DNA from: a virus
Taxonomy: Duplodnaviria; Caudoviricetes
Direction: 5' to 3' (one strand)
Virus record (IMG/VR): IMGVR_UViG_3300025120_000055
Span: 1 to 58,074 of that record
DNA length: 58,074 nt
Shown here: positions 725 to 27,901 of the stretch, in pieces
How positions within the stretch are numbered: the stretch's first letter is position 1
Layout of the letters: every line of letters starts with the position of its first letter
The notes under the pieces: model-generated
What the model saw: only the letters and a program-made list of their open reading frames with translations
What the model was told of the DNA's origin: nothing
Database searches by the model: none
Position numbers and translations under genes: made by a program

Positions 725-1342
725 ATGATGACCTTCGTAGTGGCAAGTCCAGTGAACACTATGAATAACCAAGACCATCACGATGCAGAAATTAGGTTAA
801 TGGGTTTAATTTTAGCCCAAAGCGCACTTGTCGGAGTAGCCGTTGGTATCTTTGATTCCAAAATTTGGTTGACACAAGACAGCGTTTGGATTAATGGTTT
901 TACTTACGCTATGGGTGCTTTCTTTATGCAAGGTATTGCTTATTATTTCTTCAAAATGTTCTTTGAGCAGAACTTACAAGAAAGAGCAAGACATGGTAAC
1001 ATGGAGAAACAAAGAAATCACCAATACCGTAGTATGCAACAGCAGTTTGATAATCGTAGAGCCGACATGGAAATGCGTATGCAAGAAGCGCAACTTGAGC
1101 GTGAACTTAGGTGGATGGAACAAAACCCCGGTAAAATGCCTCCAAGTTGGGGAGTACAAGGTGGCTCTCAATCTATGATTGGTATGTTTGACCAACAGGG
1201 CGGTGGCTCAAGTGTATTCGATTCTAGTAGTATCCCAACACACGAAGCAAAAGTAGTACAGCCTCTAACTCTTGGTGTAGAAAATGACACACCCTTGAAG
1301 AAAGATGGGACTCCTGACAAGAGATTTGAAAAGAAATCTTGA
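725..1342 (+). CDS. Membrane protein: two TM helices, coiled coil, C-terminal KKDGTPDKRF motif (start may be ATG 761)
   Basis: Hydrophobic segments LMGLILAQSALVGVAVGIF and VWINGFTYAMGAFFMQGIAYYFF, then a Q/E/R-rich heptad region. Confidence 0.75.
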   Translation: MMTFVVASPVNTMNNQDHHDAEIRLMGLILAQSALVGVAVGIFDSKIWLTQDSVWINGFTYAMGAFFMQGIAYYFFKMFFEQNLQERARHGNMEKQRNHQYRSMQQQFDNRRADMEMRMQEAQLERELRWMEQNPGKMPPSWGVQGGSQSMIGMFDQQGGGSSVFDSSSIPTHEAKVVQPLTLGVENDTPLKKDGTPDKRFEKKS

Positions 1343-1355
1343 ATGAGGTTTACTC

Positions 1356-1613
1356 ATGGGCCGAATTTTTCGCACACCATCTGATGATGCTACAGAAAGT
1401 ACACTGCGTGCTATCCATATAGCAAACACTGTGGATACTACTTATGAAAGAGCATGGGGTTGGGTTAAAACAGTCCTTGCTTCGATTATTGCTACTTTAG
1501 TAATTAGCGGCATTGAGTTTTATAATCCTGAATTTAGTATTTATGAGAACACAGTAGATTGGGCTGTTGAAAAACTTGAGAATTTTATTAAATGGCTGAA
1601 ATGGTGGGATTAA
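1356..1613 (+). CDS. Small single-pass membrane protein
   Basis: TM segment WGWVKTVLASIIATLVISGIEFY; amphipathic C-terminus FIKWLKWW; GAGGT RBS. Confidence 0.75.
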   Translation: MGRIFRTPSDDATESTLRAIHIANTVDTTYERAWGWVKTVLASIIATLVISGIEFYNPEFSIYENTVDWAVEKLENFIKWLKWWD

Positions 1614-1616
1614 TGA

Positions 1617-2339
1617 GTGGTAGATGCAGGAGGCACAGCATTAGTTGGGGCTGCTATGTGGGGTCAGCACTTATTCAATTCATATAAACCAAGAAGAGTA
1701 GGAGTGTACGGAGCACCAATGGTGGGAAAAACTACCTTAGACCGTTACTTAACTACACCGGGTGAAATGGAAGAAATAGGCGAAGATGACCGGACTTCAC
1801 ATGGTCGTATTCTCAAAATTGGTAAATTTAAAATGCCAAAACCAACTAGAAAAAGAGTTTCTTGGCAAGGTGAAAAAAGAGTTGTATATTCGTCTGATAT
1901 AGGTGGTCAAGAGCGTTTTTGGAACTTATGGATTGAAGATATGGTTACACGAAATGTAGAAGCAATAGTGTATATGTTTGATGATAGAGCGTTTAAAGGT
2001 GGTGACGATGGCTTACAACAAGTTGCTGGGTTTAGATACTTAGTAGATTGCTTGATTAATCGTAATTATCGTTATCGGTCATTTTGGTCTAGGTTTAGAG
2101 GTAAGAAATATCATCCTAAAGTTGTAATGTTAGTTGCTAACAAAGCAGATAGATTTTTTGATGATGCTGCATCTAAACTTTGGCACGATGGTAGAATAGG
2201 TGAACATAAAATTTTTGACCCGTTTAGAGATGATTTAATTAGACTACAAAAAGCAGGAGTTCCTACTCGTAGGTCTTTCATGGCAACAAGAATAGGATGG
2301 AATGTAGAAAAGACAATGGTGAGCCTATTGACATCATGA
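1617..2339 (+). CDS. Arf/Sar/Ras-like small GTPase
   Basis: G1 GAPMVGKTT, G3 DIGGQERFWNLW, AIVYMFD strand, G4 LVANKAD, G5-like SFMAT; hydrophobic/amphipathic N-terminus. Confidence 0.88.
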   Translation: MVDAGGTALVGAAMWGQHLFNSYKPRRVGVYGAPMVGKTTLDRYLTTPGEMEEIGEDDRTSHGRILKIGKFKMPKPTRKRVSWQGEKRVVYSSDIGGQERFWNLWIEDMVTRNVEAIVYMFDDRAFKGGDDGLQQVAGFRYLVDCLINRNYRYRSFWSRFRGKKYHPKVVMLVANKADRFFDDAASKLWHDGRIGEHKIFDPFRDDLIRLQKAGVPTRRSFMATRIGWNVEKTMVSLLTS

Positions 2340-2394
2340 CCAAATAAATGACCCCATAGGTAGCCTTTTCAATAACAACTCTTTCGGTGTAATT

Positions 2395-2586
2395 ATGTCA
2401 GGCGGTCAATCATCTACAACTTTAGTATCTACAGGTGGCGGTAGTCGTAGTTTAAGAACTACTATACCAATATGGATTGTAGAGCATTTTAATCTTAATG
2501 CTGGAGACAATGTTAGTTGGAAATTTGTAGTAAAAGATGATAACATTGTAGTAGTAATGACTCCTACGCTCACTCAAGAGGTGTGA
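2395..2586 (+). CDS. AbrB/MazE/SpoVT-family DNA-binding protein
   Basis: SLRTTIPIWIVEHFNLNAGDNVSW matches the swapped-hairpin signature. Confidence 0.85.
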   Translation: MSGGQSSTTLVSTGGGSRSLRTTIPIWIVEHFNLNAGDNVSWKFVVKDDNIVVVMTPTLTQEV

Positions 2587-3518
2587 TTATGTTTACAAGA
2601 CAACCTCAGCAAACTCTAACTGAACCACAGTTAGCAAGTTTGGCTATGCAAGGTAATGAACAATTAACTCAGGCTGCTCTTCAAGAAATGTTAGTGGCTC
2701 AACAAGGTATGCAAGAAGTTGCTGCTGCTCAAAACATTGAAGTTCCTAAAGTTAATTTCTATCCTAGCCGCCATCCTGACCCGAGAAAGGCTCGTCGTAA
2801 AGACATAAAACAAGCATACAAGTTATTAGAGCCAGCAAAGCGTTCTATATTCAACCCAATGCGATGGTTATTTGGTAGAAAATATCGTTATAACAAAGAC
2901 ACAGGAACTTGTGTAGTTGATGGTGCTAATGTTGCTGAACTAATAAAGCACGACAATCTATACATGCGAATATGCGATGATGAAACAGGTCGCTCGCTGT
3001 GGGAAATGTATTGGCAAAACCCAGTCACTGGTCAACCTGAAGCCTTTATCGCTAGAGAAAAAATAACAAGTGGTAAAAAAATGAGAGGTACATATTGTCC
3101 TGAGCATCTTCACTTGTATCATTTATTGTGTAAGTGGGAAGCAGAAGAGGACAAACAGAATGAAATGAACCCAAGTCGTCTTAGAGATAAAGTCAAAAGA
3201 GGGGTTTCAATAGTGTCTGTCCCTGTGTCGTCGGTTAAGAAAAAAGACCCTACTCCTGCTATGTTACAAAAGTACGAGCCTTTTTTTGCTGAACTTGAAA
3301 GAGATGCTGGTATGACTAAAGGTATTAATGTGTTACATTATGCAAATCCAGCCACTGGTCAAAACGATGTAACGATGGTAGTATTTGACTTGCGTATATT
3401 CCAAATGGAGTTACAACAAATGAACATACCAACTCAATCATTTCAAGACTTAATTAATAGTGAAAATGCAAAAATCCAGCAGAACCTTGATGTTGCAGTA
3501 GTTGCTGGGGAGGTTTGA
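2583..3518 (+). CDS. Hypothetical protein with Q-rich N-terminus and possible metal-binding Cys/His residues
   Basis: 311-aa ORF, GTGA overlap with previous gene; TCVVDG and YCPEHLH motifs; amphipathic IFNPMRWLFGRKY. Confidence 0.7.
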   Translation: MIMFTRQPQQTLTEPQLASLAMQGNEQLTQAALQEMLVAQQGMQEVAAAQNIEVPKVNFYPSRHPDPRKARRKDIKQAYKLLEPAKRSIFNPMRWLFGRKYRYNKDTGTCVVDGANVAELIKHDNLYMRICDDETGRSLWEMYWQNPVTGQPEAFIAREKITSGKKMRGTYCPEHLHLYHLLCKWEAEEDKQNEMNPSRLRDKVKRGVSIVSVPVSSVKKKDPTPAMLQKYEPFFAELERDAGMTKGINVLHYANPATGQNDVTMVVFDLRIFQMELQQMNIPTQSFQDLINSENAKIQQNLDVAVVAGEV

Positions 3519-3522
3519 TACG

Positions 3523-4185
3523 ATGTTTGGCTTTGGTAATCAGCAGCAACAAAATAGTGGATTAAATCTTTCTCAAACTGGAGGAGGAGGTTATGGTATG
3601 CAACAACCGCAAAGCGGTTTTACTCTTGGAGCACAACCAATGCAGCAACAACAGGTAAATCAAGGATTTATGACTGGTATGATGGGTGGCGCAGGGATGA
3701 CACCTCAGCAACAAATGATGATGCAAAATGGTCAATTCGCACCACCAAGTGAAATGGAGTTATTTGGTGCCCTGCTACAATCACAAAATCCTATTCATCG
3801 CTTTATTAAAGATGGTGGGTTAAATTCTCTAATAGATTTAATCGCCGCTACAACGAGTTTAAGTTTGTTAAATATTCTTAAAAATACTAGTTTCACTGTA
3901 GATGACGATGGTAAAATGCAATTAGACCCTGCTAGTTTGCCGTCTGATTTACAAACTTTGAGTGTAGAAAATGTAAGTATGTTACTAAATAACATGGTAT
4001 CTCAAAGCAATCAAAAATTCCAAGAGGCTGAAATGCAAAGACAACAAATATTTGCTGCTGCCGAGCAGTCCTTAATGGGTAGCGCTCTTGGTGCTGCTTT
4101 ACAAGACGAAGGAATGATGAATAAAGTCGGTGGCGGAATTGGTAGTGTCGCTCGTGGATTAATAGGACTACCTAGAACTAGGTGA
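3523..4185 (+). CDS. Q/G/M-rich low-complexity protein with helical C-terminal part (track start 3502; ATG 3523 more likely)
   Basis: GGGGAGGT RBS precedes ATG 3523; low-complexity N-terminus; amphipathic C-terminal helix KVGGGIGSVARGLIGL. Confidence 0.72.
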   Translation: MFGFGNQQQQNSGLNLSQTGGGGYGMQQPQSGFTLGAQPMQQQQVNQGFMTGMMGGAGMTPQQQMMMQNGQFAPPSEMELFGALLQSQNPIHRFIKDGGLNSLIDLIAATTSLSLLNILKNTSFTVDDDGKMQLDPASLPSDLQTLSVENVSMLLNNMVSQSNQKFQEAEMQRQQIFAAAEQSLMGSALGAALQDEGMMNKVGGGIGSVARGLIGLPRTR

Positions 4186-4189
4186 TTAA

Positions 4190-4438
4190 ATGCAACCAAG
4201 AACTTTTACTGATTATGGAATTAAACTAAGTCAAGCAGGTAGTAGTATATTTGCTCCAAGTAGAAATATCATTATAGAAATGATAATGGTTCAGTTTATT
4301 GCTATAATTATTGCTTTAGCATCTATTTTAGTTTTCAAAGGAGACACTATGGCTAGTAACGATATCACTGTATTTATCGTTGGTATTTTTGGCTCTATGG
4401 TTTTCTTAGGTACTTTATACAGTAGAATTAGTAGATGA
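4190..4438 (+). CDS. Small two-TM membrane protein (holin-like topology)
   Basis: GGTGAT RBS; TM segments MIMVQFIAIIIALASILVF and ITVFIVGIFGSMVFLGTLY; basic C-terminus. Confidence 0.7.
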   Translation: MQPRTFTDYGIKLSQAGSSIFAPSRNIIIEMIMVQFIAIIIALASILVFKGDTMASNDITVFIVGIFGSMVFLGTLYSRISR

Positions 4439-4681
4439 CCACTTATCAATTGGGCATGAGACAGAAGGCGCTAGCGCTTTTATTTTCATAACACAATTAC
4501 AAAGTCTACAAGTACCACTTCGCTTTCTCATATACGGGCATTGATAACATTCATTTAGTCTATCTGTGTAATCTTTTTTACTAACTCTTTTACCTGTAAC
4601 AGCGTCTTTTGATGCTTTCAATAAATCTTTACCACGATTTTTTAGAGGCTGCTTGGGAATCCTCTCATAAGGTGGGAGCAT
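4415..4681 (-). CDS. Small Cys-rich protein (DUF6171-like)
   Basis: RLxxCxxCP...GTCRLCNCVMKIK...SCPIDKW pattern; GGAG RBS; the only credible minus-strand gene. Confidence 0.75.
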   Translation of the reverse strand: MLPPYERIPKQPLKNRGKDLLKASKDAVTGKRVSKKDYTDRLNECYQCPYMRKRSGTCRLCNCVMKIKALAPSVSCPIDKWSSTNSTV

Positions 4682-4740: not shown

Positions 4741-5424
4741 ATGGCGGAGGGGAACCCTATAACGAAAAGGTCTTGCCCCCTTTGTCAACATCCCAGTCGT
4801 GCTGATTTAGAAAAAGGCTTACTAGATGGTGAAATATCATCAAAACAGTTGGATAAAGACATGGGTTGGCGACTTAATACTACTGACAGACATGTTAGAA
4901 ATCACATGGGTGAGTATCACATGGCTTCTAATCCCCAGTGTAAAGTATGTGCACATCCCGATAGAGCAGAATTTGAGCATAGATATTTTGAAAACGGAGC
5001 AGAATCTCATGCTATTGCTGAAGAATTAGGTATTGCTGAAACTTCTGTTTATCATCACATGAAGCATCACTTTCAACCGTTAGTTCAAAGAAGTGTAGCC
5101 GCTGAGATAACTTTAGTGGTAGGCGAAGAAATAAATACACTTAGGTCAAATGTTGAACTTCTTAATGTTAAGTTATCAGAACTGCTTAACGAGGGAAGTG
5201 TTCATGAAGATGGTTTTGTCAGGGATGCAGTATCGCTGCACAAAGAAGTACGAGAGTCAATAAAAGACCTATTAAAGATGAATGAACAGTGGAGTCCTAC
5301 TACTGAAAATGGTCAAATCAATAACACTATCAATATCCTTAAAGTTGAACTTGGTAAAGAAAGCCCCGATTCGTGGGCTAGAATTCGCAGTCAATTAGTA
5401 GAACACGCAGGTGATATGATTTGA
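4741..5424 (+). CDS. Tandem Zn-binding HTH protein with coiled coil; putative terminase small subunit
   Basis: Two copies of CxxCxHPxRxxxE...helix-turn-helix...HxxxH, then a coiled coil and INNTINI tail; upstream of TerL. Confidence 0.55.
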   Translation: MAEGNPITKRSCPLCQHPSRADLEKGLLDGEISSKQLDKDMGWRLNTTDRHVRNHMGEYHMASNPQCKVCAHPDRAEFEHRYFENGAESHAIAEELGIAETSVYHHMKHHFQPLVQRSVAAEITLVVGEEINTLRSNVELLNVKLSELLNEGSVHEDGFVRDAVSLHKEVRESIKDLLKMNEQWSPTTENGQINNTINILKVELGKESPDSWARIRSQLVEHAGDMI

Positions 5425-5822
5425 TGCCAGTTCCAGTCCCTGACCTTTTACAAATGACCCATCCCGGTTATCTTATGGTAGATAGTCAGATAGTTATTTC
5501 AGAAAACAGTTTACCAATGTATCTTGATTTTTGTCGTTGTATGACAAAGAGATTCGAGCACTACGGTGAGTTAAACATCACACCTCCCGACATGTTCAAG
5601 TTGCTCGCAAAGTCTTTTCAAACAGTCTTTGAAGATGATAATCCTGTAACATTCTTTCCAGCATATCATCTGATACCTCGTTTGCTTGAAGAGTTTGAAT
5701 ACACAATAGAAAACATGACTTCAGCGTTTCAAGAAAGCCCTAGAATTACATCATTCTATAGAAAAGTAGCCCAAAAATTGCGACAGTGTTTTGAATACCA
5801 TATACTGGGGGATATATCATGA
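5421..5822 (+). CDS. Hypothetical protein
   Basis: 133-aa ORF with GGTGAT RBS, overlapping both neighbours. Confidence 0.65.
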   Translation: MMPVPVPDLLQMTHPGYLMVDSQIVISENSLPMYLDFCRCMTKRFEHYGELNITPPDMFKLLAKSFQTVFEDDNPVTFFPAYHLIPRLLEEFEYTIENMTSAFQESPRITSFYRKVAQKLRQCFEYHILGDIS

Positions 5823-7081
5823 CGGGCGGTATGATGGGGCGAACCTCCGACACAAGAATATACAATCCCCGTTCTGAATCTTCAGAAATGTTCAGGGCTA
5901 ATCATGAAGATGATAGGCCGCCAGCAGGTATGCAAGACGCCACAGATAGAGAAAGTAGACGAGATAAGCGTCAAGAAAAGAAAGAGCGTGAAGAAAAAGA
6001 AGATAAAAGCATTCGACACATCAAAGTTAGAGGTCATCATCTTGGTATAGATAAAAAGAAAGAGGGTGAAGAAACCGATGAGGAAGAAGATAAATTCAAA
6101 CCTCGTGGTTCTACTGATAACCCAGCCACTCAGACAATGCCAAGCGGCGCTGGTGGATTTATGACGAGTCTCGCTATGGGTGCTAAAGGGCCGGGCGCTG
6201 CTGGTGGAGAGATGATTCAAATGTCTGAACCTATGGATATTGCTTGGCAGTTACTAAAACAAGATACGATTCAAAAAAAAAGTTCTCGTTCAGTAGCCCG
6301 TAGGCGTAAAAAAGAAGGATACGCTAAGTGGCGACCATCCACAGGACAGTTTGAACGCCCAAAAGGAGGCGGTGACCCCCGTAATGCTTCATCGAGGCGG
6401 TCAAAAAACATCAGTCGTAATCTTCCTTTAGGGAGAAAAACAGGGTTAATGAGGCCACATCTTTCTGTAGAGTTTTCTCACCGAGGTCTTGCTAGTAAAC
6501 AACCTATGTCAAAAGACCCGCAAAAATACAATCAATACTTGGCTTCTCAAGATGCTCGCAAACTACAAGGCGGAGTAAGAAACACAACTACTCCTCACAT
6601 GAGACATAGCCAACGCTCATTCATATCAGGTCAAACTGGTGGTGGTCGTTTGACAAATACTCTACAATATCCTCGTGTTCCAAGACCACGACTTCATTCA
6701 GTTCGTGCGCCGAGTATAGTTCCTCCTAAGATGAAAATGCCAAAACTGCAAAAACCAAAGATGCCAAGTATGGTTACAATGAGTGAAGATGAGCCACAGC
6801 ATAGCGATATTCTCAAATCTAATTCTTATCAAGCAGCATTAATGAGAATCGCTCTCAAAGAGATTCGTGAACTAATGCGTGAAAAGAAAGATAAAGATAG
6901 AAAAACAAAAGGTAAGGGAAATCCCGATACTGCTGGTGCCGCCAGTAATTTACCTAATTATCCAGCCAACAATCCTGTTTCAACTACTAAACCTGAAGGT
7001 GGGACTGAAGATGAAACAGACGCACGCAAGTTTGGGTTAGACCCCGGTGCTAATGTAGGTAGAGGGAGTGGGCGAGTTTGA
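5819..7081 (+). CDS. Low-complexity protein with highly basic central region; putative internal head/DNA-binding protein
   Basis: 420 aa; R/K/P-rich core between PMDIAWQLLK and SDILKS motifs. Confidence 0.65.
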   Translation: MTGGMMGRTSDTRIYNPRSESSEMFRANHEDDRPPAGMQDATDRESRRDKRQEKKEREEKEDKSIRHIKVRGHHLGIDKKKEGEETDEEEDKFKPRGSTDNPATQTMPSGAGGFMTSLAMGAKGPGAAGGEMIQMSEPMDIAWQLLKQDTIQKKSSRSVARRRKKEGYAKWRPSTGQFERPKGGGDPRNASSRRSKNISRNLPLGRKTGLMRPHLSVEFSHRGLASKQPMSKDPQKYNQYLASQDARKLQGGVRNTTTPHMRHSQRSFISGQTGGGRLTNTLQYPRVPRPRLHSVRAPSIVPPKMKMPKLQKPKMPSMVTMSEDEPQHSDILKSNSYQAALMRIALKEIRELMREKKDKDRKTKGKGNPDTAGAASNLPNYPANNPVSTTKPEGGTEDETDARKFGLDPGANVGRGSGRV

Positions 7082-9384: not shown

Positions 9385-10538
9385 TGACGCAGTATGTAGG
9401 TGTAATTCGTAAAGAATTATCGGCTGTGATGACTCCACAAGGGCCACAAATGCAACAGAATATTGGAGGTAATAATCCAGTAGACATGAAACCTGACCAA
9501 TTTGGTCAGATAGGAGTTAGAAATCAAAGAGCACATCAAGAAAAAAATCCTCAACCTGTGGGAACAGGTAATGTGTTGTTATATGATGCAGAAAATAACC
9601 CTACCTCACGAGTGCCTGATGCTATGGCAACTAGAGCAGTCGAAGAAAGAGCAAGAAAAAGAGGTGGAATTGGACAAAAAATAGGTCAAGGTATTGGTGG
9701 GGCGATAGGTGTTATGGGTGGGTTAGTTAGTCTTGCTAATGCTGGTGCTGCTGGTCAAGATGCTATCAGTGGTGGAGTTAATGCTTATCAAACAGGTCAA
9801 TATCTTACTCAAGAGGCTAAACCTAGACTTGGAAATCTTGTCGGTACTATTGGTGCCCATACAGCACTTCCTGTAAGAGTTACAAGAGAAAAAACATCTG
9901 ATGTAGCACCTATGGTTGCCTCTCCTACTAACACTCCTGCTGCTACTCCTGTTGCCGTTGCTGCGCCGACTGCACCGTTACCTACTGACAAAAGAAAAGT
10001 TCTTGGTGTTGATAACTATGAAGGAGCACAAAAAATACAACAAGAGGCTATGAGTATGTTAGGAAATCCTCACTATAATGCTGGAGCGTTTAGTGCAGTT
10101 AACACTACTGATGACCAAGGTAGGACTGTAGGTGTGCAGGGTGCTGGCCCTGCTCAAAATCAATATGACCCTACGGCTATTAATCCAAACCAACTCAATC
10201 CAATTACACCAGCAGGAACACTTCGACTAACTAAACCGGATGGCACTGCTTATCAATCCCCACAACAGGTGGCTATTACTAAACCTACAGTTGCTCAGCC
10301 AACCACACAACAAGACCCCGGCAAAGTGATAGCGAATGAACTGGGCACAATTCAACAATCCCTACCGCTACCTGACCCCAATGAACCAACAGATGCCGAG
10401 AAAACAATAGAATCTAGTGCACAGACTGGTAAAACGATAAGCGACGCTCTTAAGATAAAGATGTTGAAAGCAGAAATTTCAGGTCGTCGGGCTGCTTACG
10501 ATTACTTTACTAAAATGTTTATCGAGGTGAAACCATGA
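9384..10538 (+). CDS. Hypothetical protein with glycine-zipper hydrophobic segment; putative ejection/pilot protein
   Basis: GGIGQKIGQGIGGAIGVMGGLVSLANAGAAG segment; P/T/Q-rich remainder. Confidence 0.6.
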   Translation: MTQYVGVIRKELSAVMTPQGPQMQQNIGGNNPVDMKPDQFGQIGVRNQRAHQEKNPQPVGTGNVLLYDAENNPTSRVPDAMATRAVEERARKRGGIGQKIGQGIGGAIGVMGGLVSLANAGAAGQDAISGGVNAYQTGQYLTQEAKPRLGNLVGTIGAHTALPVRVTREKTSDVAPMVASPTNTPAATPVAVAAPTAPLPTDKRKVLGVDNYEGAQKIQQEAMSMLGNPHYNAGAFSAVNTTDDQGRTVGVQGAGPAQNQYDPTAINPNQLNPITPAGTLRLTKPDGTAYQSPQQVAITKPTVAQPTTQQDPGKVIANELGTIQQSLPLPDPNEPTDAEKTIESSAQTGKTISDALKIKMLKAEISGRRAAYDYFTKMFIEVKP

Positions 10539-12019
10539 GCAAGCGTGAAGAAGAAAAGCAGATGAAAGAACTCATCGTTGAAATGGATACTAAAATGTCC
10601 GAGCGCTCTTTCAAGTATTTCTTTGAAACAGTGTTAGATTTTGATTATGCAGGGCATCACCAATCTTGGAATGATGGTTTAGAAAACAACCGTTACTACT
10701 GTGTTAAAGCGAGTCGTGACCACGGTAAATCTGTATTCTTTATGTCCTATGCTCTTTGGTTAGCGGCTTTTAAACCTAATACTCATATCATGATTTTCTC
10801 ACACTCTCTTGAACAGACATTGGAACACATGCGTTTTATTCGTAATAATATAGATGCTGCTGCTTGTCTACAACATCTCAAACCAAGTGGTATACCATGG
10901 AGGAAAACATACTTCGAGTTTACTAATGGTAGCCGTATTATGGCTAAGTCGGTTGGTGGAGCAACTCGTGGTTTCCACCCTGATGTAGTAGTATGTGATG
11001 ACATTTTATCAGGGACAACTGGTAGTGAATTACAGCGTGCTGCTGATTGGTTTTACGGTGTTCTTCTACCTGTTCTTCACCACGAAGGAAAACTTATGAT
11101 GGTAGGAACTCCGTTTAGTTACAACGATTTGTATGCTGAGTTAGAAAGAAAAGAAACATTCCAAGTGGAGACTTATCCCGCTATCAATAAAGAAGGTGAA
11201 CCCTTATGGCCTGTTCGTTGGAGTCTTGAAGCACTAGAACAAAGAAGATTATCTATGCCAGCAATTCAATTTACTCGTGAGTATCTGTGTGAACCAATTC
11301 ACGATGTAGCGAGTATGTTTCCAATGACTATACTTGAAAAGGCTCGTGATAGAGAACTGGTTTTACTTGACCATGCTGAAAATGAATACGATGCTAATGG
11401 TGACGCTACAGGTATTTTTGGTCATCATTTTATTGGGTGGGATACTGCGATTGCATCTGACAAGAATGCTGACTTTACCGCCATGACTGTTTTACGACAA
11501 CCACCTGATGATAATGTAAAACAAATAGTTGGTATTGTACATGAGCGTGGACTGAGTTCTGTAGCACAGAAGCGACAAATTATTTTGTTGAATCAAAGAT
11601 TTCAACCTGATTTGATTGAACTTGAAGGTAACAATTTCCAGCGTATGTTTGCTATGGAATTAAATGAAATGCGAGAAGATATTCCTATTAGAACATTCAT
11701 GACGACTCGTACAAGAAAGGAAAGTCTCTTCATGTCATTACTCATGGCTTTTGAACAGGGACATCTTAAAACACCCTATGGTAACGAGAAGAGTAGAATA
11801 TTTACTCACAAATTAGAAGAAGAATTGAACAGGTTTGGTATGCAGAAAAACGGTAGATTAGAGAGTGTAGGAGTACATGATGACTTGGCTATGAGTTTAG
11901 CCTTGGCTAATTGGGCAACCAAAGAATTTAGAGGTTCAATTGTAATGTTAGATGATATTTTACCCGGTCTTGATAATATCATAACCGGCAGAAGTAACGG
12001 CGGATGGATGATACCATGA
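10535..12019 (+). CDS. terL: Terminase large subunit
   Basis: Walker A ASRDHGKS, RG..PDVVVCDD Walker B, VGTP coupling motif, PLWP..W, F..EYLC, nuclease acidic residues in IGWD, ELEGN and HDDLAMSLALA. Confidence 0.96.
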   Translation: MSKREEEKQMKELIVEMDTKMSERSFKYFFETVLDFDYAGHHQSWNDGLENNRYYCVKASRDHGKSVFFMSYALWLAAFKPNTHIMIFSHSLEQTLEHMRFIRNNIDAAACLQHLKPSGIPWRKTYFEFTNGSRIMAKSVGGATRGFHPDVVVCDDILSGTTGSELQRAADWFYGVLLPVLHHEGKLMMVGTPFSYNDLYAELERKETFQVETYPAINKEGEPLWPVRWSLEALEQRRLSMPAIQFTREYLCEPIHDVASMFPMTILEKARDRELVLLDHAENEYDANGDATGIFGHHFIGWDTAIASDKNADFTAMTVLRQPPDDNVKQIVGIVHERGLSSVAQKRQIILLNQRFQPDLIELEGNNFQRMFAMELNEMREDIPIRTFMTTRTRKESLFMSLLMAFEQGHLKTPYGNEKSRIFTHKLEEELNRFGMQKNGRLESVGVHDDLAMSLALANWATKEFRGSIVMLDDILPGLDNIITGRSNGGWMIP

Positions 12020-12687: not shown

Positions 12688-13602
12688 ATGACTGATGTAA
12701 ATATTTACGAAGTTGGCCCTCGTGATGGTTTACAGAATATTACTGAAAACACTCCTACTGATGATAAAATTTGTATGATACAAAGACTACATTATGCTGG
12801 GTTAAAAAATATGGAAATCACATCATTTGTACATCCTAAGTTAGTTCCTAACATGGCAGATGCTGAGGAAGTATTTGCCGCTACTAAAGACATTGATGAC
12901 TTCAGTGTTCTAGTTCCTAATCAAAAAGGACTCGATAGAGCAAAAGCCGTTGGTGCTAAAAAATTCAATGTATTCTTTTCTCCTATTGAATCATTTAATA
13001 AAGCAAACTTGGGCACAGATATGGATACTTCTATTGATAATATTTCTACTATGTTAGGTGATATTGATAGAGAAAGTGTTAGGGCTTACATTTCTTGTGC
13101 ATTCGGTACTACTACTGAAAAAGTCAATGAATATAGACTACTGTGGGCTATGCAAGCAGCAGATAACTTTGCAGACACTGTAGTTTTATGCGACACAGTA
13201 GGTATTGCTCATCCTTCGTCTATGACTAGAACATTAGAACTTTCAAGACACATTGATGCTAACATAGCACTGCATCTTCATCACACTAAAAATAAAAGAG
13301 ATAATATGTTTCCTAATATTCAGGCTGCTTTAGATTGGGGTATCACTGAATTCGACGCTAGCATAGGTGGTCTTGGTGGTTGTCCTTTTATGAAGGGTAG
13401 TGGTGGTAACTTATCTACTAACGACATGGTAAAGTATCTACATAAAAATAACTACGAAACAGGACTAGAAATATGGGAATTAAACGCTATTGCTAATTCT
13501 TATGCTGAAGAACAAATAATACCCTTTACACCAATGAGACTTAGAGTGCGAAATAAGTTACAAGAAATCATAAATAAATCGCCTATTGGTAGCAAGTGGT
13601 AA
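12688..13602 (+). CDS. hmgL: Hydroxymethylglutaryl-CoA lyase (DRE-TIM metallolyase); auxiliary metabolic gene
   Basis: IYEVGPRDGLQN, SFVHPKLVPNMAD, CDTVG, metal-binding HLH, GGLGGCPF with the conserved Cys, GNLST. Confidence 0.93.
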   Translation: MTDVNIYEVGPRDGLQNITENTPTDDKICMIQRLHYAGLKNMEITSFVHPKLVPNMADAEEVFAATKDIDDFSVLVPNQKGLDRAKAVGAKKFNVFFSPIESFNKANLGTDMDTSIDNISTMLGDIDRESVRAYISCAFGTTTEKVNEYRLLWAMQAADNFADTVVLCDTVGIAHPSSMTRTLELSRHIDANIALHLHHTKNKRDNMFPNIQAALDWGITEFDASIGGLGGCPFMKGSGGNLSTNDMVKYLHKNNYETGLEIWELNAIANSYAEEQIIPFTPMRLRVRNKLQEIINKSPIGSKW

Positions 13603-13612
13603 ATAGGTCAAT

Positions 13613-14860
13613 GTGGAGGTCAAATATATGTGGGGTTCGGCTATGATTGAAGATGACTTTGGTGAGGTCTATACCCACACCCCTGTTTCCACTGAAGAAA
13701 TCAAATCAATTAAAAAACAGCATCATTTTGCACCAAACGGTGATGGTTGGTTTGAAGCATCACTTGGATGTAATGCGGAAACTCTTGTAAAAAGATTAAG
13801 AAAAGCAAGAAGAAACAACAAAGACAATCGTAGTGAAATTGATAATTTCATCAATGATGTTAGGATGATTAAATCATTAGAAACTAATATGACAATCAAA
13901 TCTTTGTCTTGGGCTGAACCTTATGAAGACACTATCAAACAGTTAGGATTAAATGACCGTAAACTCAAAAGTCTTCGTAAGTTTGGTGAGACACGCTCTT
14001 TGAATCTCGAAAGAGCATGTATGATGTGGGATAAGGCAGAATTAACTCTTAAAATGCTAGATGAGCATGAAGATGTATGGGGTGCAGAAGAACAACAGGC
14101 TTGGGCTTCTGCTATGCAAGATAGAAGTTCTGCTAGAAAAATGTGGTCTAATTCACTTCATCCAATTGACAAACTTAGCAAGGCTGAGAAGAATTTTTTA
14201 GAATTTGCCTCTCAAGAATTACTCGAAAAAGGCCCAATGAAAGTAACTACCATTCGTAGTAATTTTTCCGATGCTGGTATGCTTAAAAAATCTCAAACTG
14301 ATAGAAAACTCGCTACACTCATGAACATGTATGGTGAAGATATGGATATTGTAAAAGGAGCACTACGAGGAACTTATGTTCGTATTTCCAGTGATGGACT
14401 GGTGTTAAAAGATGTGTGGTCTTATAGTGCTGGTTTTATTGATGCTGACGGATACATTACTATCACTGAGCGTGGTGAACCTCGTGCTGGAATGATAGCC
14501 ACAGGTGATAGAGGAAAAGTTCACTGTGAAGATTTGTACAAAACGCTAGACTGTGGTGTACTTTCTACTGATAATAAAGTGTACAAAGATTCTCAAAGAA
14601 GTCAACATAGATTACAATTCTATTCTAAGGCTGACTTGCGAAAGTTACTTCATGGGGTGTCCCCTCACTTAAAAATGAAGTCTACTCAAGCAAAGGCTGT
14701 ACTAGCCTATATTGATGAAAAAGATAAAACTAGAAAGCAAGAATTAAAACGCTTAGTAAGATACGAAAATTGGAAGGATGATAAGCGAAAATCTAACGCT
14801 TTGTTACAAGAATGGGGAATTGACATGGATACTATTGGTAAATACGGAGAGGGTCTATGA
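13613..14860 (+). CDS. Protein with C-terminal single-motif LAGLIDADG endonuclease domain and uncharacterised helical N-terminus
   Basis: WSYSAGFIDADGYITI ... HRLQFYSKADLRKLLHGVSPHLKMKSTQA (I-CreI-like layout); not inside an intein or intron. Confidence 0.8.
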   Translation: MEVKYMWGSAMIEDDFGEVYTHTPVSTEEIKSIKKQHHFAPNGDGWFEASLGCNAETLVKRLRKARRNNKDNRSEIDNFINDVRMIKSLETNMTIKSLSWAEPYEDTIKQLGLNDRKLKSLRKFGETRSLNLERACMMWDKAELTLKMLDEHEDVWGAEEQQAWASAMQDRSSARKMWSNSLHPIDKLSKAEKNFLEFASQELLEKGPMKVTTIRSNFSDAGMLKKSQTDRKLATLMNMYGEDMDIVKGALRGTYVRISSDGLVLKDVWSYSAGFIDADGYITITERGEPRAGMIATGDRGKVHCEDLYKTLDCGVLSTDNKVYKDSQRSQHRLQFYSKADLRKLLHGVSPHLKMKSTQAKAVLAYIDEKDKTRKQELKRLVRYENWKDDKRKSNALLQEWGIDMDTIGKYGEGL

Positions 14861-16647
14861 TGGCTGAAGAAAATCAAAGCATCGTTAGTAGATTTTTGTC
14901 TGCTCTATCAAGTCCATTTAGAAGAAGAACAACTCCTCAACCTCAGATGCCGTTGTATACTACTGGTATACAAGAGCCAGTTTTAGCACAAGGTATTACT
15001 TTACCAGCGCTCTATGCTGTCTCAAATGAAAATTTAATTCTCAGAACTGTTATTACAAAACTTGGTCAAGAAGTATTCCGTAGAGGTTACTACTGGGAAA
15101 AGAAGTTTCGTATGAAATGTGTTGAATGTGAAGAAGAGTTTCAACATGAAGTTGATGAATGCTCGACCTGTGGTGGAGAAGTTCGCAAACCTAACCCCGA
15201 CCAAGTATTGTATCCTAAGTGGTTACTTCAACAAGAAAACTCTATGGAACAAAGTTTTATGCAAATCCTTCATGAGATTGAGCGTGATTTGAATGTTGTA
15301 GATGATGCATTCTTGTTAATGATTAAAGAATACTATGTAGATGAAAAGACTGGTGAAGTACAATTCTATAGAATAAAAGAGTTAATTCGTGGTGACCCAA
15401 TCTTTATGCGAATTATCGCTGATAAGCGTGGTGTTCGTGGTGGGCGATACAAGATTTGTCGTATCCATCGTGACCAAGTTGCTTATCCGGGTCAAGAGCC
15501 AAAATGTAAAATATGTAACTCTCGTTTAGTTGATGCTCACTATGTTAACATGGCGGGTTCAGGTAAGAATCAATATTTTATGAAAGGTGAAGTTCTCCAT
15601 GTATCAAAATATAATCCGGGTAAATTATATGGGCGTGCTCCAGTAAACACGCTATGGCGACAAGCCATGACTCTTACTGCTATGGATAATTATATCTATA
15701 CTGCGTATCAAAAGCGTAGAATACCAAAGGGTATTGTGAGCGTCACTACAGATAATCTCGAATCTATGAAGTCTTTTTGGAAAGGCGTTGATGAAAAAAT
15801 GGAGCGTGACCCACACTACATTCCTAAAGTTGGTATCGAATCTTCTTCAGGCCGTGGTGGTGTGAACTGGGTCAAGTTTATGGATACACTTGAAGAGATG
15901 CAATACATAGCAGTGCGTGATGAAATAAGAAATCGTATTGCTGCTTTTTATGGTGTGTCTTCTATCTTTATGATTGATAATGGTAAATCAGGCGGTCTGA
16001 ATAACGAAGGTTTGCAGATTCTTGTAACTAATAGAGCAGTTGAATACGGACAAAAAGTGTATACAGATTTATTATTCCCTAGAATGTTGCGTGAATTAGA
16101 TGTCACTGATTGGAAATTAACTCTATATCCAAACGAAGAGGAAGATGAAATTACAAGACTACGCCGTGATGAAATGGAAGTTAATCTTGCTCAAAGAATG
16201 GCTATGCTTGGATATCAGCCTGAATTGTTAGAAGAAGGAGATAGAGATGTTAGGTTTAGTTACAAAAAGAAACCACCACAACCTGAAGGTCAACAACCAC
16301 AAGGTCAACCTCAACCACAAGGTCAACCTAGACAGGCTATGCCACCACAAGGTGGTATGCCTCCTAGACAGGCTATGCCACCTAGACAGGGTATGCCACC
16401 ACAAGGTGGTATGCCTCCACAAATGATGCAAGGTGGTAGAATGCCTCCACAAATGATGCCTCCATCACAGCCCGGAGGAGAGGGGATGGGAATCCGCACT
16501 CCACGCTCTCCGGCACGACCTCAACAAAGAGGTAGTCCGGGGGCGGGTGCACCTGTAACTAGTGTACAACAAAGAGGACTCCCTCCTAATATCCAACAAC
16601 AAAACAGTAGAACAATCCAAGATAGCAGACGCCTTAGAGGGGCGTAA
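14857..16647 (+). CDS. Portal protein with Zn-ribbon insertions and P/Q/G/M-rich C-terminal tail
   Basis: ERDLNVVDDAFL, GEVLHV...LYGRAPV, IPKGIV, RNRIAAFYGVS portal motifs; position between TerL and protease. Confidence 0.9.
   Translation: MMAEENQSIVSRFLSALSSPFRRRTTPQPQMPLYTTGIQEPVLAQGITLPALYAVSNENLILRTVITKLGQEVFRRGYYWEKKFRMKCVECEEEFQHEVDECSTCGGEVRKPNPDQVLYPKWLLQQENSMEQSFMQILHEIERDLNVVDDAFLLMIKEYYVDEKTGEVQFYRIKELIRGDPIFMRIIADKRGVRGGRYKICRIHRDQVAYPGQEPKCKICNSRLVDAHYVNMAGSGKNQYFMKGEVLHVSKYNPGKLYGRAPVNTLWRQAMTLTAMDNYIYTAYQKRRIPKGIVSVTTDNLESMKSFWKGVDEKMERDPHYIPKVGIESSSGRGGVNWVKFMDTLEEMQYIAVRDEIRNRIAAFYGVSSIFMIDNGKSGGLNNEGLQILVTNRAVEYGQKVYTDLLFPRMLRELDVTDWKLTLYPNEEEDEITRLRRDEMEVNLAQRMAMLGYQPELLEEGDRDVRFSYKKKPPQPEGQQPQGQPQPQGQPRQAMPPQGGMPPRQAMPPRQGMPPQGGMPPQMMQGGRMPPQMMPPSQPGGEGMGIRTPRSPARPQQRGSPGAGAPVTSVQQRGLPPNIQQQNSRTIQDSRRLRGA
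16327..16416 (+). repeat. Five tandem 18-bp units encoding P-[RQ]-[QG]-[AG]-M-P in the portal tail
   Basis: cctagacaggctatgcca / ccacaaggtggtatgcct / cctagacaggctatgcca / cctagacagggtatgcca / ccacaaggtggtatgcct. Confidence 0.9.
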
Positions 16648-18156: not shown

Positions 18157-21100
18157 TTGATTGAAACACCTACTGACTGGTATTATAGAAGTAGAAATGA
18201 ACTTCTAAAATCTGTGTTAGACGGCCATGATTGGTTAAACTCATTAGGTGAGTATAAATTTGCTAAGATGAATTTAGAAGCACACAATGAGATAATACCA
18301 CAAACGACATTAGATGATATAACTAACTCTATTCTAAAAGCAGCCAATGAGCAAACTTTTGAAAGAGGCGCTGAAATGCGCTTAGGTTCACATCCTTGGC
18401 AGAATAGAGTTCGTGAAAGAGTCTTACATGAAGTAGCGGCGTCGTATCCCCATGTTGAGTTTGCACAAGGCCAGCACTTTGCTGAATCTCATCCTCATCA
18501 TCCGAAGCATCACCCTCTTCGTCAAAAAAATACCATCACTGGTAGGTCGAAAATGATAGAAAAATTAAGACAATTCTACTTACCTTCTGCACCGGGTGAA
18601 AGAAGTTTGTCATACGACTATAAGATGGCTGAAAGAGGGAAAGAACAGTTAGAGCGTAAAAATGAAAATCCTTCTGTTATAGGTAAAAAAAGATTCGACA
18701 CTAACGAAAATAAAGAAGTAGAACATCATAATTTCTTAGGCCCATTAAATGACCATTATCTACATGATATTTATTATGATAATTTTTTGGAGTGGCAAAG
18801 AAATAATCCTGACACTGTAAAAGAAATGATAGAAAAGTTTCCTAAACCGGAAGAACATGAGCATGCTTTACAATTAAAACACTTTGAAGAGTTTGCTGAT
18901 AGTTTAGAGAGTGACCAAAATCATGGGACACTTTACGACCCAAAAGAAAATTTAACTGAAGCAGAAATTCAAGAGATAACATATAGTGGTGATTTTGAAT
19001 CTTTAACCCCTTTTCCAATTAAAGAAGGTTTAGGTTATGATGGTTACTTGTATGGTCTTGAGTTTCTTCCACCTATTGATAGATTCAAAGTGCTAAAACA
19101 CCTTCATGAAAAAGGAACAGATGCTCATGATGCTCAAACTATACAACTATCAAATGGTAAAACAATAAGTGCTGGTAGGATAAAAAGAAATCTTGCTCAA
19201 CGATTTACTGGTGAGTTTGACCGCTATATGCGACCTCAACACATGCATGGAGCGAATGTTAAGAAACACTATGAAACAATAGATGACGACCCAAGAGATA
19301 GCGATAGAGTCATGAAGCAATCATTACTCGATGCTATGAGATTAGTTCCTCATGAAGAAGGTAGCACTATTAGTGTATACGATAAATTACTAGAGCAGTA
19401 TAATACTATGTTGAATAATCATAGAGATGAGGGTACAGAAAGTAGTCTTACTCATTTACCAATTAGAGGAATGATGCAAGGTAGAAAAATAAACAAAGGT
19501 GCTATTCAGCACCCAACTAGTCATGGAGAAGGTATACTTCAAGAATTACAAACTTTAGATGATGACCCGTTTACATTTACAGATTTGAATACTATGTTAG
19601 GTTTGTTAGGATACAATAGTGACATGACTGCTATGGATAATCATCCGTTATTACTAGACTTTGAAAACCCGTTGGTAGACCATGATAAAGTAAAAGAAAT
19701 TATCATGAAGGCTCAAGATATGTCGCAAGTATATCAACAACAAAAACCAATTCGTAATCACGATTTCTTCCATCATGGTGGAAAGAATGGCCCTGATATT
19801 AACGATATTCCTGAAGAAGAAAGAGAGCATTACCTCACAGATGACGAAGGTAACATCATAGGATTAGGGGCACACTTTGCTGATGAGTTCCATCATCAAG
19901 GTGGTATGGGAAGAAATGTTTTACATTACTTAGAAATGATGCACGACTCTCTACCAAAAGACAATAATGGGTATTCTATTATTGGTAGAGTAGATGGAGG
20001 AGAATTAATTCCTAATCCAAAAACAGTAGGACTATGGGGAAGATATCTCCCCTCATTATTTTCTAAAGATAGTGGAACTCATCAAGGCCCACACGGTATT
20101 TCATCTCTTTGGGACTCTTCTAGTCATATAAGAACTAAACCAAGAAATAACAAAAATCTACCTCATAGGCAAATGTCGTCTTTGATAGGTGGTTATACTA
20201 ACTTAGTTAGATATATGACTGATAATGAAAGAAAACAATACTTCAGTGTAGGTCAATCTAACAGGGGAGAGTTAGGTGGTAGGAATTTCTTTACTACAAA
20301 TCCTATCAACGCAATAGGTGGTAAGGGTGGTAAGGCTACTCAGACCATAAACAATCAAATCCACAGTGGGAGATTAATTACTTCGGGTGGAAGATATCAT
20401 CCGCCTCATGAGCCAATGAAAAAGAAACAACGCCTTGGAAGAAAAGATATCCGTGCTGATTCAAAATTAGCCCATAGTGAAGGTAACTTAACAACATACA
20501 GAACTATACAAGGGCATAAGAAATTAGCAGGTAAAGATTTACCTCTTACTAATCAACAACAACAACAAATTGATGAATTAGACCAAAAGTATGATGAAAT
20601 AAGTAATATAATAATGAATTTTGAAGAAGGTTCTGAAGAATATGGTAATCTTAATTTTCAATTACATGATATAGAAGGTAAAATTGAAGAAATAAATAAT
20701 CAGGCTGCTAAAGAGAATAAAAATTCCTATAATCAAATATCTGATAACGCTCAGATAAAAGATGAAAAAGACCATGAAGCCATAATGATTATGGCGAAAA
20801 AATTAAGACCTGAGTTTTTGAAGAAAGACCCTGATGCGTTTAATCCTGAGATGCCTGACAAGTTCTTAGCCAACACTTCTCGTTTGATGAGAGATGCTAA
20901 TATGGCTTTATTGAGATTACCTCATTCGGTACATGGACTATTTACTCATGGATATGGAGAATATGAAGATGTTCATCAAAGCGCTGCTGAGTTATTAACA
21001 GATGATGAAGATGAAGTTGTATCACCACATCACACTATTGCTAGTGTTCTAGGTAATGCTGGTAAACTAATTGAACCTACCATGTCGCTAGCAAAAGTTA

Positions 21101-25006: not shown

Positions 25007-25044
25007 AGGACAATAAAAAAAAATATGGAGAGATAAATATGGCA
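25007..25044 (+). promoter_or_regulatory. Conserved leader/RBS, copy 1 (before MCP)
   Basis: aggacaataaa...atggagagataaatATGGCA; the 20 nt at 25025-25044 are identical to 26235-26254. Confidence 0.75.
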
Positions 25045-27791: not shown

Positions 27792-27901
27792 CACGATGTA
27801 AATTCCTTGATGATTGGTTTGATGCTAAATCAAAACAAGTAGATAAGAAAGAGTCTAAGACTAAAAAATGTTTTGTAACGGGGGATAAGAAATGCCAGTA
27901 G
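27788..27901 (+). CDS. Small 37-aa ORF not in the track
   Basis: ATGA overlap with previous stop; GAGGAG RBS; MTRCKFLDDWFDAKSKQVDKKESKTKKCFVTGDKKCQ fills the gap to the next gene. Confidence 0.5.
   Translation: MTRCKFLDDWFDAKSKQVDKKESKTKKCFVTGDKKCQ

Follow-up and report, generated by a model that had tools for sequence, protein, structure and literature searches.

The 58,074-nucleotide linear virus record IMGVR_UViG_3300025120_000055 of IMG/VR (hereafter the window, by which the whole of this stretch of DNA is meant) carries near its left end a tightly packed row of seven plus-strand genes, g1 to g7, across positions 725–4438, the third of which encodes a divergent small GTPase. A first-pass annotation, made from the letters alone, had taken this row for a self-contained module of a small GTPase and membrane proteins, serving lysis or egress, vesiculation or a membrane-associated assembly site. 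All seven open reading frames (ORFs) were confirmed where it had placed them, and comparison with five close relatives indicates purifying selection on every one of them, with ratios of nonsynonymous to synonymous substitution rates (dN/dS) of 0.02–0.35, which are to be taken as rough values because dS is often 1 or more. These ratios are lowest for the GTPase (0.03–0.07) and for g5 (0.02–0.08), and reach 0.27 for g4 and 0.35 for g7. The genes are the following.

725–1342, plus strand: g1, 205 residues, predicted membrane protein
1356–1613, plus strand: g2, 85 residues, small protein with one hydrophobic segment
1617–2339, plus strand: g3, 240 residues, divergent small GTPase of the Ras superfamily
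2395–2586, plus strand: g4, 63 residues, small DNA-binding protein of AbrB/MazE type (SpoVT/AbrB-like)
2583–3518, plus strand: g5, 311 residues, Cys/His protein
3502–4185, plus strand: g6, 227 residues, Q/G/M-rich protein
4190–4438, plus strand: g7, 82 residues, small protein with two predicted transmembrane segments (2-TM)

A Core Cassette Able to Change Its Genomic Position

Gene order was compared in four clades of GTPase-bearing loci, that of the window and those designated P0007, P0020 and P0008. In the window clade (97 matches, 80 loci kept, gene presence assessed by tblastn), the seven genes follow the same order, g1 being found in 77 of the 80 loci, g2 in 79, g4 in 64, g7 in 78, and g3, g5 and g6 in all of them. 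The colinearity of this clade runs past the right boundary of the row (g9 in 80 loci, g11 in 64 and g12 in 71) and is thus insufficient on its own to define a unit, so that the decisive evidence comes from the three further GTPase clades.

In the P0007 clade (4 loci), a thermosome-type chaperonin gene (Cpn60_TCP1, E 5.5e-133) is followed by g1, a g2-like ORF, the GTPase gene, g5 and a gene for a Q-rich protein. The profile matches are strong for g1 (E 2e-12 and 7e-18) and g5 (E 2e-46 and 5e-26), and the g2-like ORF of locus L082 matches the g2 profile at E 0.006. The start of g5 overlaps the GTPase stop in this clade, and the Q-rich protein is homologous both to g6 (hhalign E 9e-5) and to the form found in the P0020 clade (E 7e-9).

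The P0020 clade (140 matches, 80 loci kept) is more distant, its GTPases being 28–31% identical to g3 of the window. The succession found there comprises a 2-TM ORF (73 of 80 loci), a small ORF (75), the GTPase gene (80), a g5-like gene (74) and a gene for a Q-rich protein (73). Profile–profile alignment with hhalign relates the window and P0020 forms of g5 (E 7e-5, probability 63%) and of g6 (E 1.2e-5, probability 81%). The surroundings are quite different from those in the window: the cassette comes after the genes of the protease, the major capsid protein (MCP) and three small ORFs, and before those of a phrog_17057 protein and the tail tube. Relative to the gene of the large terminase subunit (TerL), the GTPase gene lies 8.9 kb upstream in the window and 15–16 kb downstream in three 100%-complete genomes of the P0020 clade, in which TerL is 38–39% identical to that of the window.

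The P0008 clade is represented by 11 metagenome loci, five of which were examined. There, g1 is found in four of the five loci (E about 1e-18 to 1e-19), g2 in four (E 9e-4 to 3e-6), and the GTPase, g5 (E 1e-35 to 6e-40) and g7 (E about 1e-9 to 1e-10) in all five; g6 is matched at E ≤ 1e-6 in three loci and more weakly in the other two. The genes upstream of the cassette are glycosyltransferase-like. An additional conserved gene of about 250 residues occupies the interval between g2 and the GTPase gene (5229–5999 in locus L251, with counterparts in L253, L255, L256 and L260); its product has no recognizable relative among PDB sequences, and it could represent one more component of the cassette, peculiar to this clade.

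The gene junctions are narrow in both large clades, with medians of at most 13 nucleotides, and g5 and g6 usually overlap by 4 or 1 nucleotides. Since the same order of g1, g2, GTPase, g5 and g6 recurs amid four different flanks, these five genes can be considered as one relocatable unit, and the comparison of gene orders shows that this core cassette has moved as a block between genomic positions during evolution. By the same comparison, g7, which was not found after g6 in the P0007 and P0020 clades, is a frequent accessory of the window and P0008 clades, and g4 is an insertion in one subclade. The g4 gene is missing by tblastn from 16 of the 80 window-clade loci; in the corresponding group (L065–L080) there is no room for it, because g5 starts 5–27 nucleotides past the GTPase stop, and in 13 loci devoid of AbrB this distance is 4 nucleotides. 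None of the window-family profiles gave a match at the equivalent position in the P0007, P0020 and P0008 clades.

The synteny search that the first-pass annotation had proposed thus came out in its favor as regards related viruses, the genes co-occurring in order across the four GTPase clades. Its notion of a self-contained module holds with a core of five genes instead of seven, and the placement next to the packaging genes is a feature of the window clade, the other clades having chaperonin, capsid and tail, or glycosyltransferase-like flanks. It is very improbable that the genes are mere neighbors in a colinear and conserved genome, devoid of any functional unity: the colinearity of the window clade beyond the right boundary would fit this view, but the gene order recurs with four different flanking sets and the junctions are tight or overlapping.

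A Very Divergent Small GTPase

The g3 protein displays the G1 P-loop GxxxxGK[ST], the G3 DxxG and the G4 NKxD motifs of the Ras superfamily. Between g3 and 32 orthologues (55–91% identity), the G1 element (Y-G-x3-V-G-K-T-T), D94-x-G-G97, N175-K-A-D178 and M222-A-T224 are invariant. Over a set of 24 sequences including all clades and distant representatives, residues G32, G37, K38, D94, G97, D122, N175 and K176 are still invariant, with T39 and D178 nearly so. The AlphaFold2 model (predicted local distance difference test, pLDDT, 70.6; predicted template modeling score, pTM, 0.72) has low confidence in the switch regions, including switch I, and its predicted fold is that of a small G domain. 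When submitted to Foldseek, it yields at least 500 PDB matches at E ≤ 0.001 (E from 6e-8), the top ones being Rab33, Rab27B, Rac3, DiRas1, Rap2A and KRas, with target-normalized template modeling scores of 0.46–0.59.

Assignment to a given family is far less direct. In Pfam, the best indication for the window protein is Roc at E 0.011, below the cut-off, with no match to Arf (PF00025) at E ≤ 0.1, and NCBIfam gives only a sub-threshold small_GTP match. Against PDB sequences, phmmer points to Arl8 and Arl10 at E 0.2–0.3 and the profile of the whole family gives a best E of 0.04. This profile retrieves 88 matches at E ≤ 0.001, many of them short, from 1.84 billion representative proteins, and no canonical Ras, Rab or Arf was recognized among these 88. 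Weak Pfam matches (E ≤ 0.1) within the set of 24 members are distributed between Roc (15), Arf (11), MMR_HSR1 (10), SRPRB (8) and Ras (2). The distant members P0086 and P0088 exceed the Pfam Arf cut-off (36.2 and 26.8 bits for 22.3 required), being the only ones to do so among the members whose scores were inspected, and P0086 also passes that of SRPRB (26.2 versus 25 bits). No confirmed locus was found for P0086 or P0036 in the viral contig collection. As judged from its motifs and modeled fold, g3 is a genuine small GTPase, very divergent and nearest to the Arf/SRbeta/Roc group, with a predicted nucleotide activity. The initial label of Arf/Ras-like GTPase is therefore supported by the invariant G motifs and the Ras-superfamily fold, but the window protein misses the Pfam Arf cut-off, and the term “Arf-like” is acceptable in the sense of “works like and nearest to”, not as a statement of family membership.

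Upstream of the G domain, all 80 window-clade and all 80 P0020-clade GTPases have an N-terminal extension of 23–24 residues which includes a hydrophobic 12-mer, with median Kyte–Doolittle values of 1.58 and 2.48, respectively, to be compared with about −0.6 to −0.7 for the remainder of the protein. This extension is predicted to be helical in the g3 model. In the distant member P0079, the N-terminal stretch is long and hydrophobic, and resembles the N-terminal membrane anchor of SRbeta.

This last feature, together with the SRPRB matches (8 of 24 members at E ≤ 0.1, with P0086 above the cut-off), could lead one to consider that the GTPase and its membrane partners place or insert viral membrane proteins, as SRbeta does in targeting, and leave the membrane undeformed. 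Such a role looks improbable, as none of the cassette proteins is detectably similar to SRalpha, SRP or translocon components, and the viral membrane proteins seen here are very small, with no evident need for a dedicated targeting device.

Predicted Membrane, Soluble, and Regulatory Partners

Three of the partners are predicted to be membrane proteins. The g1 protein has a conserved pair of hydrophobic helices (around residues 25–43 and 57–80). Behind these come a long helix of polar and charged character and, at the C-terminus, a conserved LKKDGTPDxRY motif. A Kyte–Doolittle scan detects one segment in 66 of 76 orthologues, two in three and none in seven, the second, aromatic stretch being conserved and lying below the scan threshold. 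A coiled coil had also been attributed to this protein and was dropped, since only 7 of 17 a/d positions are hydrophobic in the best heptad register; the hydrophobic helix pair is what stands of the initial description. In g2, the 33 N-terminal residues are highly conserved and precede a single hydrophobic segment (residues 35–53), in agreement with the one-segment protein initially described. The g7 protein has two segments in 73 of 77 orthologues. It had been called holin-like, a resemblance which concerns its size and 2-TM topology: no holin family match was obtained in the Pfam and PHROG scans, and no endolysin-like or other lytic enzyme is detectable in the cassette. On the basis of its sequence, g7 is an accessory membrane component of the cassette, its membrane placement being predicted. 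The sole “endolysin” PHROG match in the window falls on the tape-measure-like ORF, and no other lysis genes are recognizable there.

The other cassette proteins show no such segments (0 of 80 for g3, 0 of 64 for g4 and 0 of 80 for g5), with the partial exception of g6 (one segment in 24 of 73). The g5 protein is, by its sequence conservation, the best-conserved partner of the GTPase. Five residues, C110, C172, H175, H177 and H180, are invariant (motif GTYCPEHLHLYHLL), a further Cys occurs five residues past C110 in most sequences, and the counterpart in the P0020 clade carries CxxC ... CxxHxxxH. This Cys/His pattern is that of a probable zinc site, and zinc binding is thus predicted. The AlphaFold2 model of g5 is poor (pLDDT 63, pTM 0.44) and, with this model, Foldseek gives no match at E ≤ 0.001; the structural comparison suggested at first reading was accordingly informative for g3 and not for g5. 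The profiles of g5 and g6 retrieve nothing credible from PDB sequences, the Pfam scan shows no ArfGAP match for g5, and no usable match to g5 came from the protein atlas. For g6, the atlas proposes a viral hypothetical cluster at 0.77, below the quotable level. In g6, the N-terminus is variable, of low complexity and rich in Q, G and M, and is accompanied by a PPSE motif, a conserved helical core and a Gly-rich C-terminus that is conserved as well; translation may actually begin at the ATG of residue 8. No known family was recognized for g1, g2, g5, g6 or g7 in the Pfam, PHROG and NCBIfam scans, and a PADLOC search of nine proteins gave no match.

The identification of g4 as an AbrB/MazE-type protein, already made in the first-pass annotation, is supported at the family level, since 21 of the 25 members have a PF04014 match at E ≤ 0.01, the best one at 5.8e-6; the window protein itself scores 21.9 bits for a cut-off of 24.7, and the g4 profile has no match below E 0.25 among PDB sequences.

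Boundaries and Candidate Regulatory Signals

The cassette is bordered in the window by the following features.

610–724, no strand assigned: AT-rich intergenic region upstream of g1, candidate promoter/operator of the cassette
4415–4681, minus strand: g8, 88 residues, convergent Cys-rich DUF6171 protein, overlapping the end of g7
4464–4481, plus strand: terminator-like hairpin with a T-run, just past the g7 stop (consensus scan)

On the left side, the AT-rich region contains an imperfect inverted repeat (618–708) with 45-nucleotide arms that are 73% complementary. This repeat is built from a pair of TATAGACAATACA-like motifs in opposite orientations, at 636–648 on the minus strand and 678–690 on the plus strand. 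The motif has only two other matches in the window, both inside a giant ORF, and its overall count is not above chance (4 matches for 3.35 expected). With up to two mismatches, it is present upstream of g1 in 30 of 58 AbrB-positive relatives, in 0 of 16 AbrB-negative ones and in 0 of 74 control coding segments, an association which does not constitute independent evidence because the loci are related and the AbrB-negative ones form a single clade. Either an operator for the AbrB-like protein or a clade-specific promoter would fit this pattern.

On the right side, g8 is assigned to DUF6171 by Pfam (29.9 bits, cut-off 27) and to phrog_13558 (E 1.6e-12), and is present in 48 of the 80 window-clade loci. 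Given this distribution, g8 is the marker of the right cassette boundary in the window clade and stands outside the cassette. The two boundaries recognized initially, an inverted repeat and a convergent gene, are hence both present, but the long repeat itself is not conserved in the relatives examined. The hairpin at 4464–4481 is a possible end of the transcription unit; terminator-like sites are hardly in excess by the same consensus scan (six in 7.2 kb, 4.9 expected), which makes this a weak signal.

Further to the right, g9 (4741–5424, plus strand, 227 residues), found in all 80 window-clade loci, has two helix-turn-helix-like regions and matches DNA-binding and small-terminase PHROGs weakly; it may encode a small terminase subunit or a late regulator.

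The Source Virus and the Distribution of the Cassette

The window, with a CheckV completeness estimate of 54%, also encodes a tape-measure-like protein and the main components of a tailed-virus head.

10535–12019: TerL
14857–16647: portal
23613–25001: prohead protease
25039–26211: HK97-type MCP

The best cultured-virus matches of its MCP are the haloarchaeal tailed viruses HVTV-1, HCTV-1 and HCTV-5, at 32–34% identity. Between portal and protease, an ORF of 1804 residues (18157–23571, plus strand) includes a weak ATP-dependent DNA ligase domain (DNA_ligase_A_M, residues 1370–1466; 23.1 bits, cut-off 26.2), and an HNH-type gene is inserted within the structural block. Complete relatives measure 98–108 kb. 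According to the accessible part of the reference description (PMC5434244), magroviruses are recognized by halovirus-like morphogenetic genes, a ligase in the structural module, an inserted nuclease gene and a genome of about 100 kb; the placement of the ligase within that module is given there as a trait of magrovirus groups A and B, and magroviruses are reported to dominate the surface-ocean archaeal virome. Halovirus-like morphogenesis, the structural-block ligase and a genome of about 100 kb are all found when the window is taken together with its complete relatives. Because of the halovirus-like MCP, the ligase domain and HNH gene in the structural block and the size of these relatives, the window is treated here as a magrovirus-like marine archaeal tailed virus, with a putative archaeal host.

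Some further features of the window deserve mention. An HMGL-like gene of the pyruvate carboxyltransferase/aldolase family (12688–13602, plus strand, E 1.8e-25) lies between TerL and portal and resembles an auxiliary metabolic gene; as far as the accessible text of PMC5434244 goes, none was observed in magroviruses. A single ORF of 6068 residues (36221–54427, plus strand), downstream of the tape-measure-like gene, has a sub-threshold Pfam match to Laminin_G_3 (concanavalin-like lectin) near its N-terminus and is possibly a giant tail fiber or adhesin. ARAGORN proposes a tRNA-Cys with the unusual anticodon ACA at 28709–28797 (minus strand), antisense within a 520-residue ORF (27892–29454), which is probably a false positive. 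The tape-measure-like ORF (33642–34958, plus strand) is almost wholly overlapped by an antisense ORF of 395 residues (33803–34990, minus strand), probably a compositional artifact.

The GTPase gene is single-copy in the four complete genomes examined (G001 and G006–G008); it was not seen in three fragments of 34–50% completeness, an observation which is uninformative. The GTPase and g5 profiles have no match at E ≤ 1 in the complete genomes of HVTV-1 and HCTV-1, and the same GTPase profile matches strongly in complete marine relatives. A tblastn search of 50,697 phage records with the GTPase returned nothing. In a scan of cellular genomes (one genome per species, 185,579 species), only three GTPase loci were obtained. 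These relatives (L166, L167 and L168) sit on contigs of 8–16 kb in metagenome-assembled genomes (MAGs) labeled Parvibaculum, Promethearchaeati and Maricaulis. The inconsistency of these taxa makes mis-binned viral DNA the simplest explanation, and the data suggest that viral contigs assigned in error to cellular MAGs account for all three. Among the genomes examined, the cassette is, by sequence similarity, specific to the marine virus lineage.

This distribution bears on two other possible roles. One is host takeover or exclusion, in which the GTPase complex would block superinfection, disturb division or vesicle formation, or counter a membrane-associated defense. The restriction of the family to viral and metagenome contigs (three short MAG contigs apart, among the cellular genomes scanned), the small membrane proteins, the lack of detection in haloviruses of the shared capsid lineage, which ties the cassette to the marine host, and its situation in the window clade, where it precedes the packaging genes at the left end of the structural block, would all suit such a function. 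Exclusion and anti-defense genes are however usually variable accessories, and the cassette is single-copy in all four complete genomes, is kept across clades whose TerL proteins are only 38–39% identical, is strongly constrained (dN/dS 0.02–0.08 for g3 and g5) and has no PADLOC match among the nine proteins scanned. This role is therefore unlikely, while being the closest competitor of a function in virus release.

The other role is morphogenetic: the cassette would organize a membrane-associated site of head or tail assembly or of packaging, or chaperone the assembly. Several of its locations are what one would expect in this case: the P0020 cassette lies between the genes of the MCP and the tail tube, that of the window clade precedes the terminase genes, and that of the P0007 clade adjoins the chaperonin gene. 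On the other hand, the cassette has no constant place with respect to the conserved structural backbone, and the nearest cultured relatives share the morphogenetic genes (MCP 32–34% identical) but have no detectable GTPase or g5 at E ≤ 1. Moreover, we know of no need for membrane proteins or a small GTPase in the assembly of tailed viruses. A morphogenesis factor appears thus still less likely than a takeover device. Because the GTPase and g5 profiles miss HVTV-1 and HCTV-1 in spite of their homologous MCP, the cassette is considered to lie outside the shared morphogenesis, and its role would be host-specific and independent of capsid and tail formation.

Proposed Role at the Host Membrane

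The reading that we prefer is that of a membrane-recruited GTPase cassette which remodels or breaches the host membrane, for virion release or vesiculation; by the sequence evidence and by analogy, we would give it a probability of about 0.45. In this scheme, g3 would be a GTP-dependent switch acting at the host cytoplasmic membrane, with its hydrophobic N-terminal helix, and g1, g2 and, where present, g7 would hold or recruit it there. The g5 protein would be a regulator or an effector of g3, possibly GAP-like (GTPase-activating protein) by analogy with the zinc-finger ArfGAPs and ArvC, a proposal made because it is translationally coupled to the GTPase, as conserved as the latter and probably zinc-binding. 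The g6 protein would be a further soluble partner. The last step is the most speculative one: the complex may remodel or breach the host membrane late in infection, leading to virion release or vesiculation. That the cassette acts at the host membrane is probable; an egress or membrane-remodeling role is a reasonable hypothesis. Release is ranked first because the cassette is core-like, specific of a host lineage and outside the shared morphogenesis, and because no other lysis genes are recognizable in the window. Membrane remodeling for release is thus the most likely role, followed in decreasing order by takeover or exclusion at the host envelope, morphogenesis and SRbeta-like targeting.

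A number of observations weigh against this preferred role, or at least temper it. Concerning the GTPase, the position of the catalytic Gln after DxGG (Q98 in the window) is occupied in the family by Q, E, D or H, and once by F. The N-terminal helix of the window g3 combines a hydrophobic moment of 0.21–0.25 with moderate hydrophobicity and is not a classic amphipathic helix. No fusion of the GTPase with a partner was found in a search of longer proteins at E ≤ 1e-5, which is weak evidence. The transmembrane predictions all come from the crude Kyte–Doolittle scan, by which g2 has its segment in 46 of 78 orthologues. The positional counterparts of g1 and g2 in the P0020 clade are not supported as homologues (hhalign E 0.21 and 0.13), and the insertion of the cassette inside the structural block of that clade also fits a morphogenetic role. 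The loci were all obtained by way of the GTPase or of a close MCP, so that the counts given above do not represent prevalence across magrovirus groups. Lastly, g5 and g6 have no membrane feature beyond those of control proteins. The amphipathic patches initially ascribed to them were dropped, their hydrophobic moments (0.35–0.50) being no higher than those of the controls TerL, g9 and g10 (0.47–0.66). What stands of their first description is, for g5, a Cys/His protein with five invariant Cys/His residues and, for g6, the Q/G/M-rich N-terminus and the conserved Gly-rich C-terminus. The claim that every protein except AbrB engages the membrane is accordingly not sustained for these two by either the Kyte–Doolittle scan or the hydrophobic moments.

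A bolder version of the release hypothesis, to which we grant a rather low probability and which draws on analogy, is that the cassette represents the long-sought release machinery of marine archaeal tailed viruses, timed by GTP, with an Arf-like GTPase docked on viral membrane proteins under a zinc-binding controller. Such a switch would open or deform the membrane of the host and so allow the virions to escape. If true, it would be the prokaryotic-virus counterpart of the eukaryotic Arf/Sar1 membrane remodeling, unrelated to holin–endolysin systems or virus-associated pyramids.

Little is known about the way in which tailed viruses of archaea get out of the host cell. Archaeal virus exit is described, in the accessible parts of the literature, through budding, pyramids and a proposed holin system. 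The present locus adds a conserved, single-copy and strongly constrained operon centered on the type of GTPase by which membrane remodeling is driven in eukaryotes and vesiculation in haloarchaea. Its five or six small genes can be cloned, and would allow GTPase-driven membrane biology to be tested in a prokaryotic virus. It also adds a deeply divergent new branch to the Arf/SRbeta-like GTPases. Even with a different function, the cassette would correspond to an uncharacterized core function of a globally abundant virus group.

As for previous descriptions, the word “GTPase” is absent from the main text of PMC5434244, PMC11706807, PMC10160649, PMC8651126 and PMC13465236. Literature associating GTPases, Poseidoniales and viruses was limited to Asgard and eukaryogenesis work, with nothing on Poseidoniales viruses, and, among the publications that the search listed, none paired a small GTPase with Caudoviricetes. 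The cassette is thus undescribed in the literature searched; the supplementary tables of PMC5434244, PMC10160649 and PMC11706807 may list a GTP-binding protein.

Comparison with Known Systems

Phage lysis cassettes, composed of holin, endolysin and spanin genes, share with the present one the clustering of small membrane proteins, g7 having a holin-like size and 2-TM topology. The viral cassette differs from them by the lack of any detectable endolysin-like enzyme and of a holin family match. We know of no phage lysis cassette that includes a GTPase. Holin-like genes have been proposed for Adrikavirales viruses of Poseidoniales, according to the accessible part of PMC11706807.

Virus-encoded GTPases have precedents elsewhere. 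Giant viruses of eukaryotes encode Rab and other trafficking GTPases (PMC4569851, PMC9546365), and these are likewise small GTPases suspected of a membrane action. They are apparently close copies of host genes, whereas the g3 family is nearly devoid of cellular counterparts, belongs to tailed viruses of prokaryotes and is accompanied by partner genes of its own. Arf-like GTPases have also been found in a mobile-element-like region of an Asgard archaeon, where they cluster with Asgard and eukaryotic Arf (accessible part of PMC11529989). An Arf-family-like GTPase on a putative archaeal mobile element is common to both cases; in contrast with the present cassette, the accessible text on the Asgard element reports neither an operon with membrane proteins nor a tailed virus.

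The eukaryotic Arf, Sar1 and Arl proteins have a small G domain placed after an N-terminal membrane-engaging helix, and work with zinc-finger ArfGAPs. Like these and SRbeta, the window g3 has a DxGGQ-type G3 followed by a conserved Trp, its family finds its best weak sequence matches in Arl8/Arl10, Pfam Arf, SRPRB and Roc, and a Cys/His partner gene (g5) lies downstream. It departs from Ras and Arf by longer G1–G3 and G3–G4 spacers, and from Arf by a score below the Pfam cut-off, a variable catalytic Gln, a low-moment helix and a g5 partner without ArfGAP match.

The ArvA/ArvB/ArvC (OapA/B/C) operon of Haloferax volcanii acts in membrane vesiculation, and ArvA has a proposed membrane-engaging N-terminal helix, the zinc-binding accessory ArvC being proposed as its GAP (accessible part of PMC10927574). 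The first-pass annotation had pointed to this system, and the parallel stands as a functional analogy only. OapB (PF09846) has no match in the window, although the control search detected it in Haloferax volcanii and Methanosarcina acetivorans; OapC (PF09845) has none there at E ≤ 1, g5 being a different Cys/His protein. The viral cassette differs moreover by its integral membrane proteins, as predicted, and by partners matching no known family. The common ground between the two is their layout, in which a small GTPase with an N-terminal helix is followed by accessory genes, one of them, g5 in the virus, encoding a probable zinc-binding protein.

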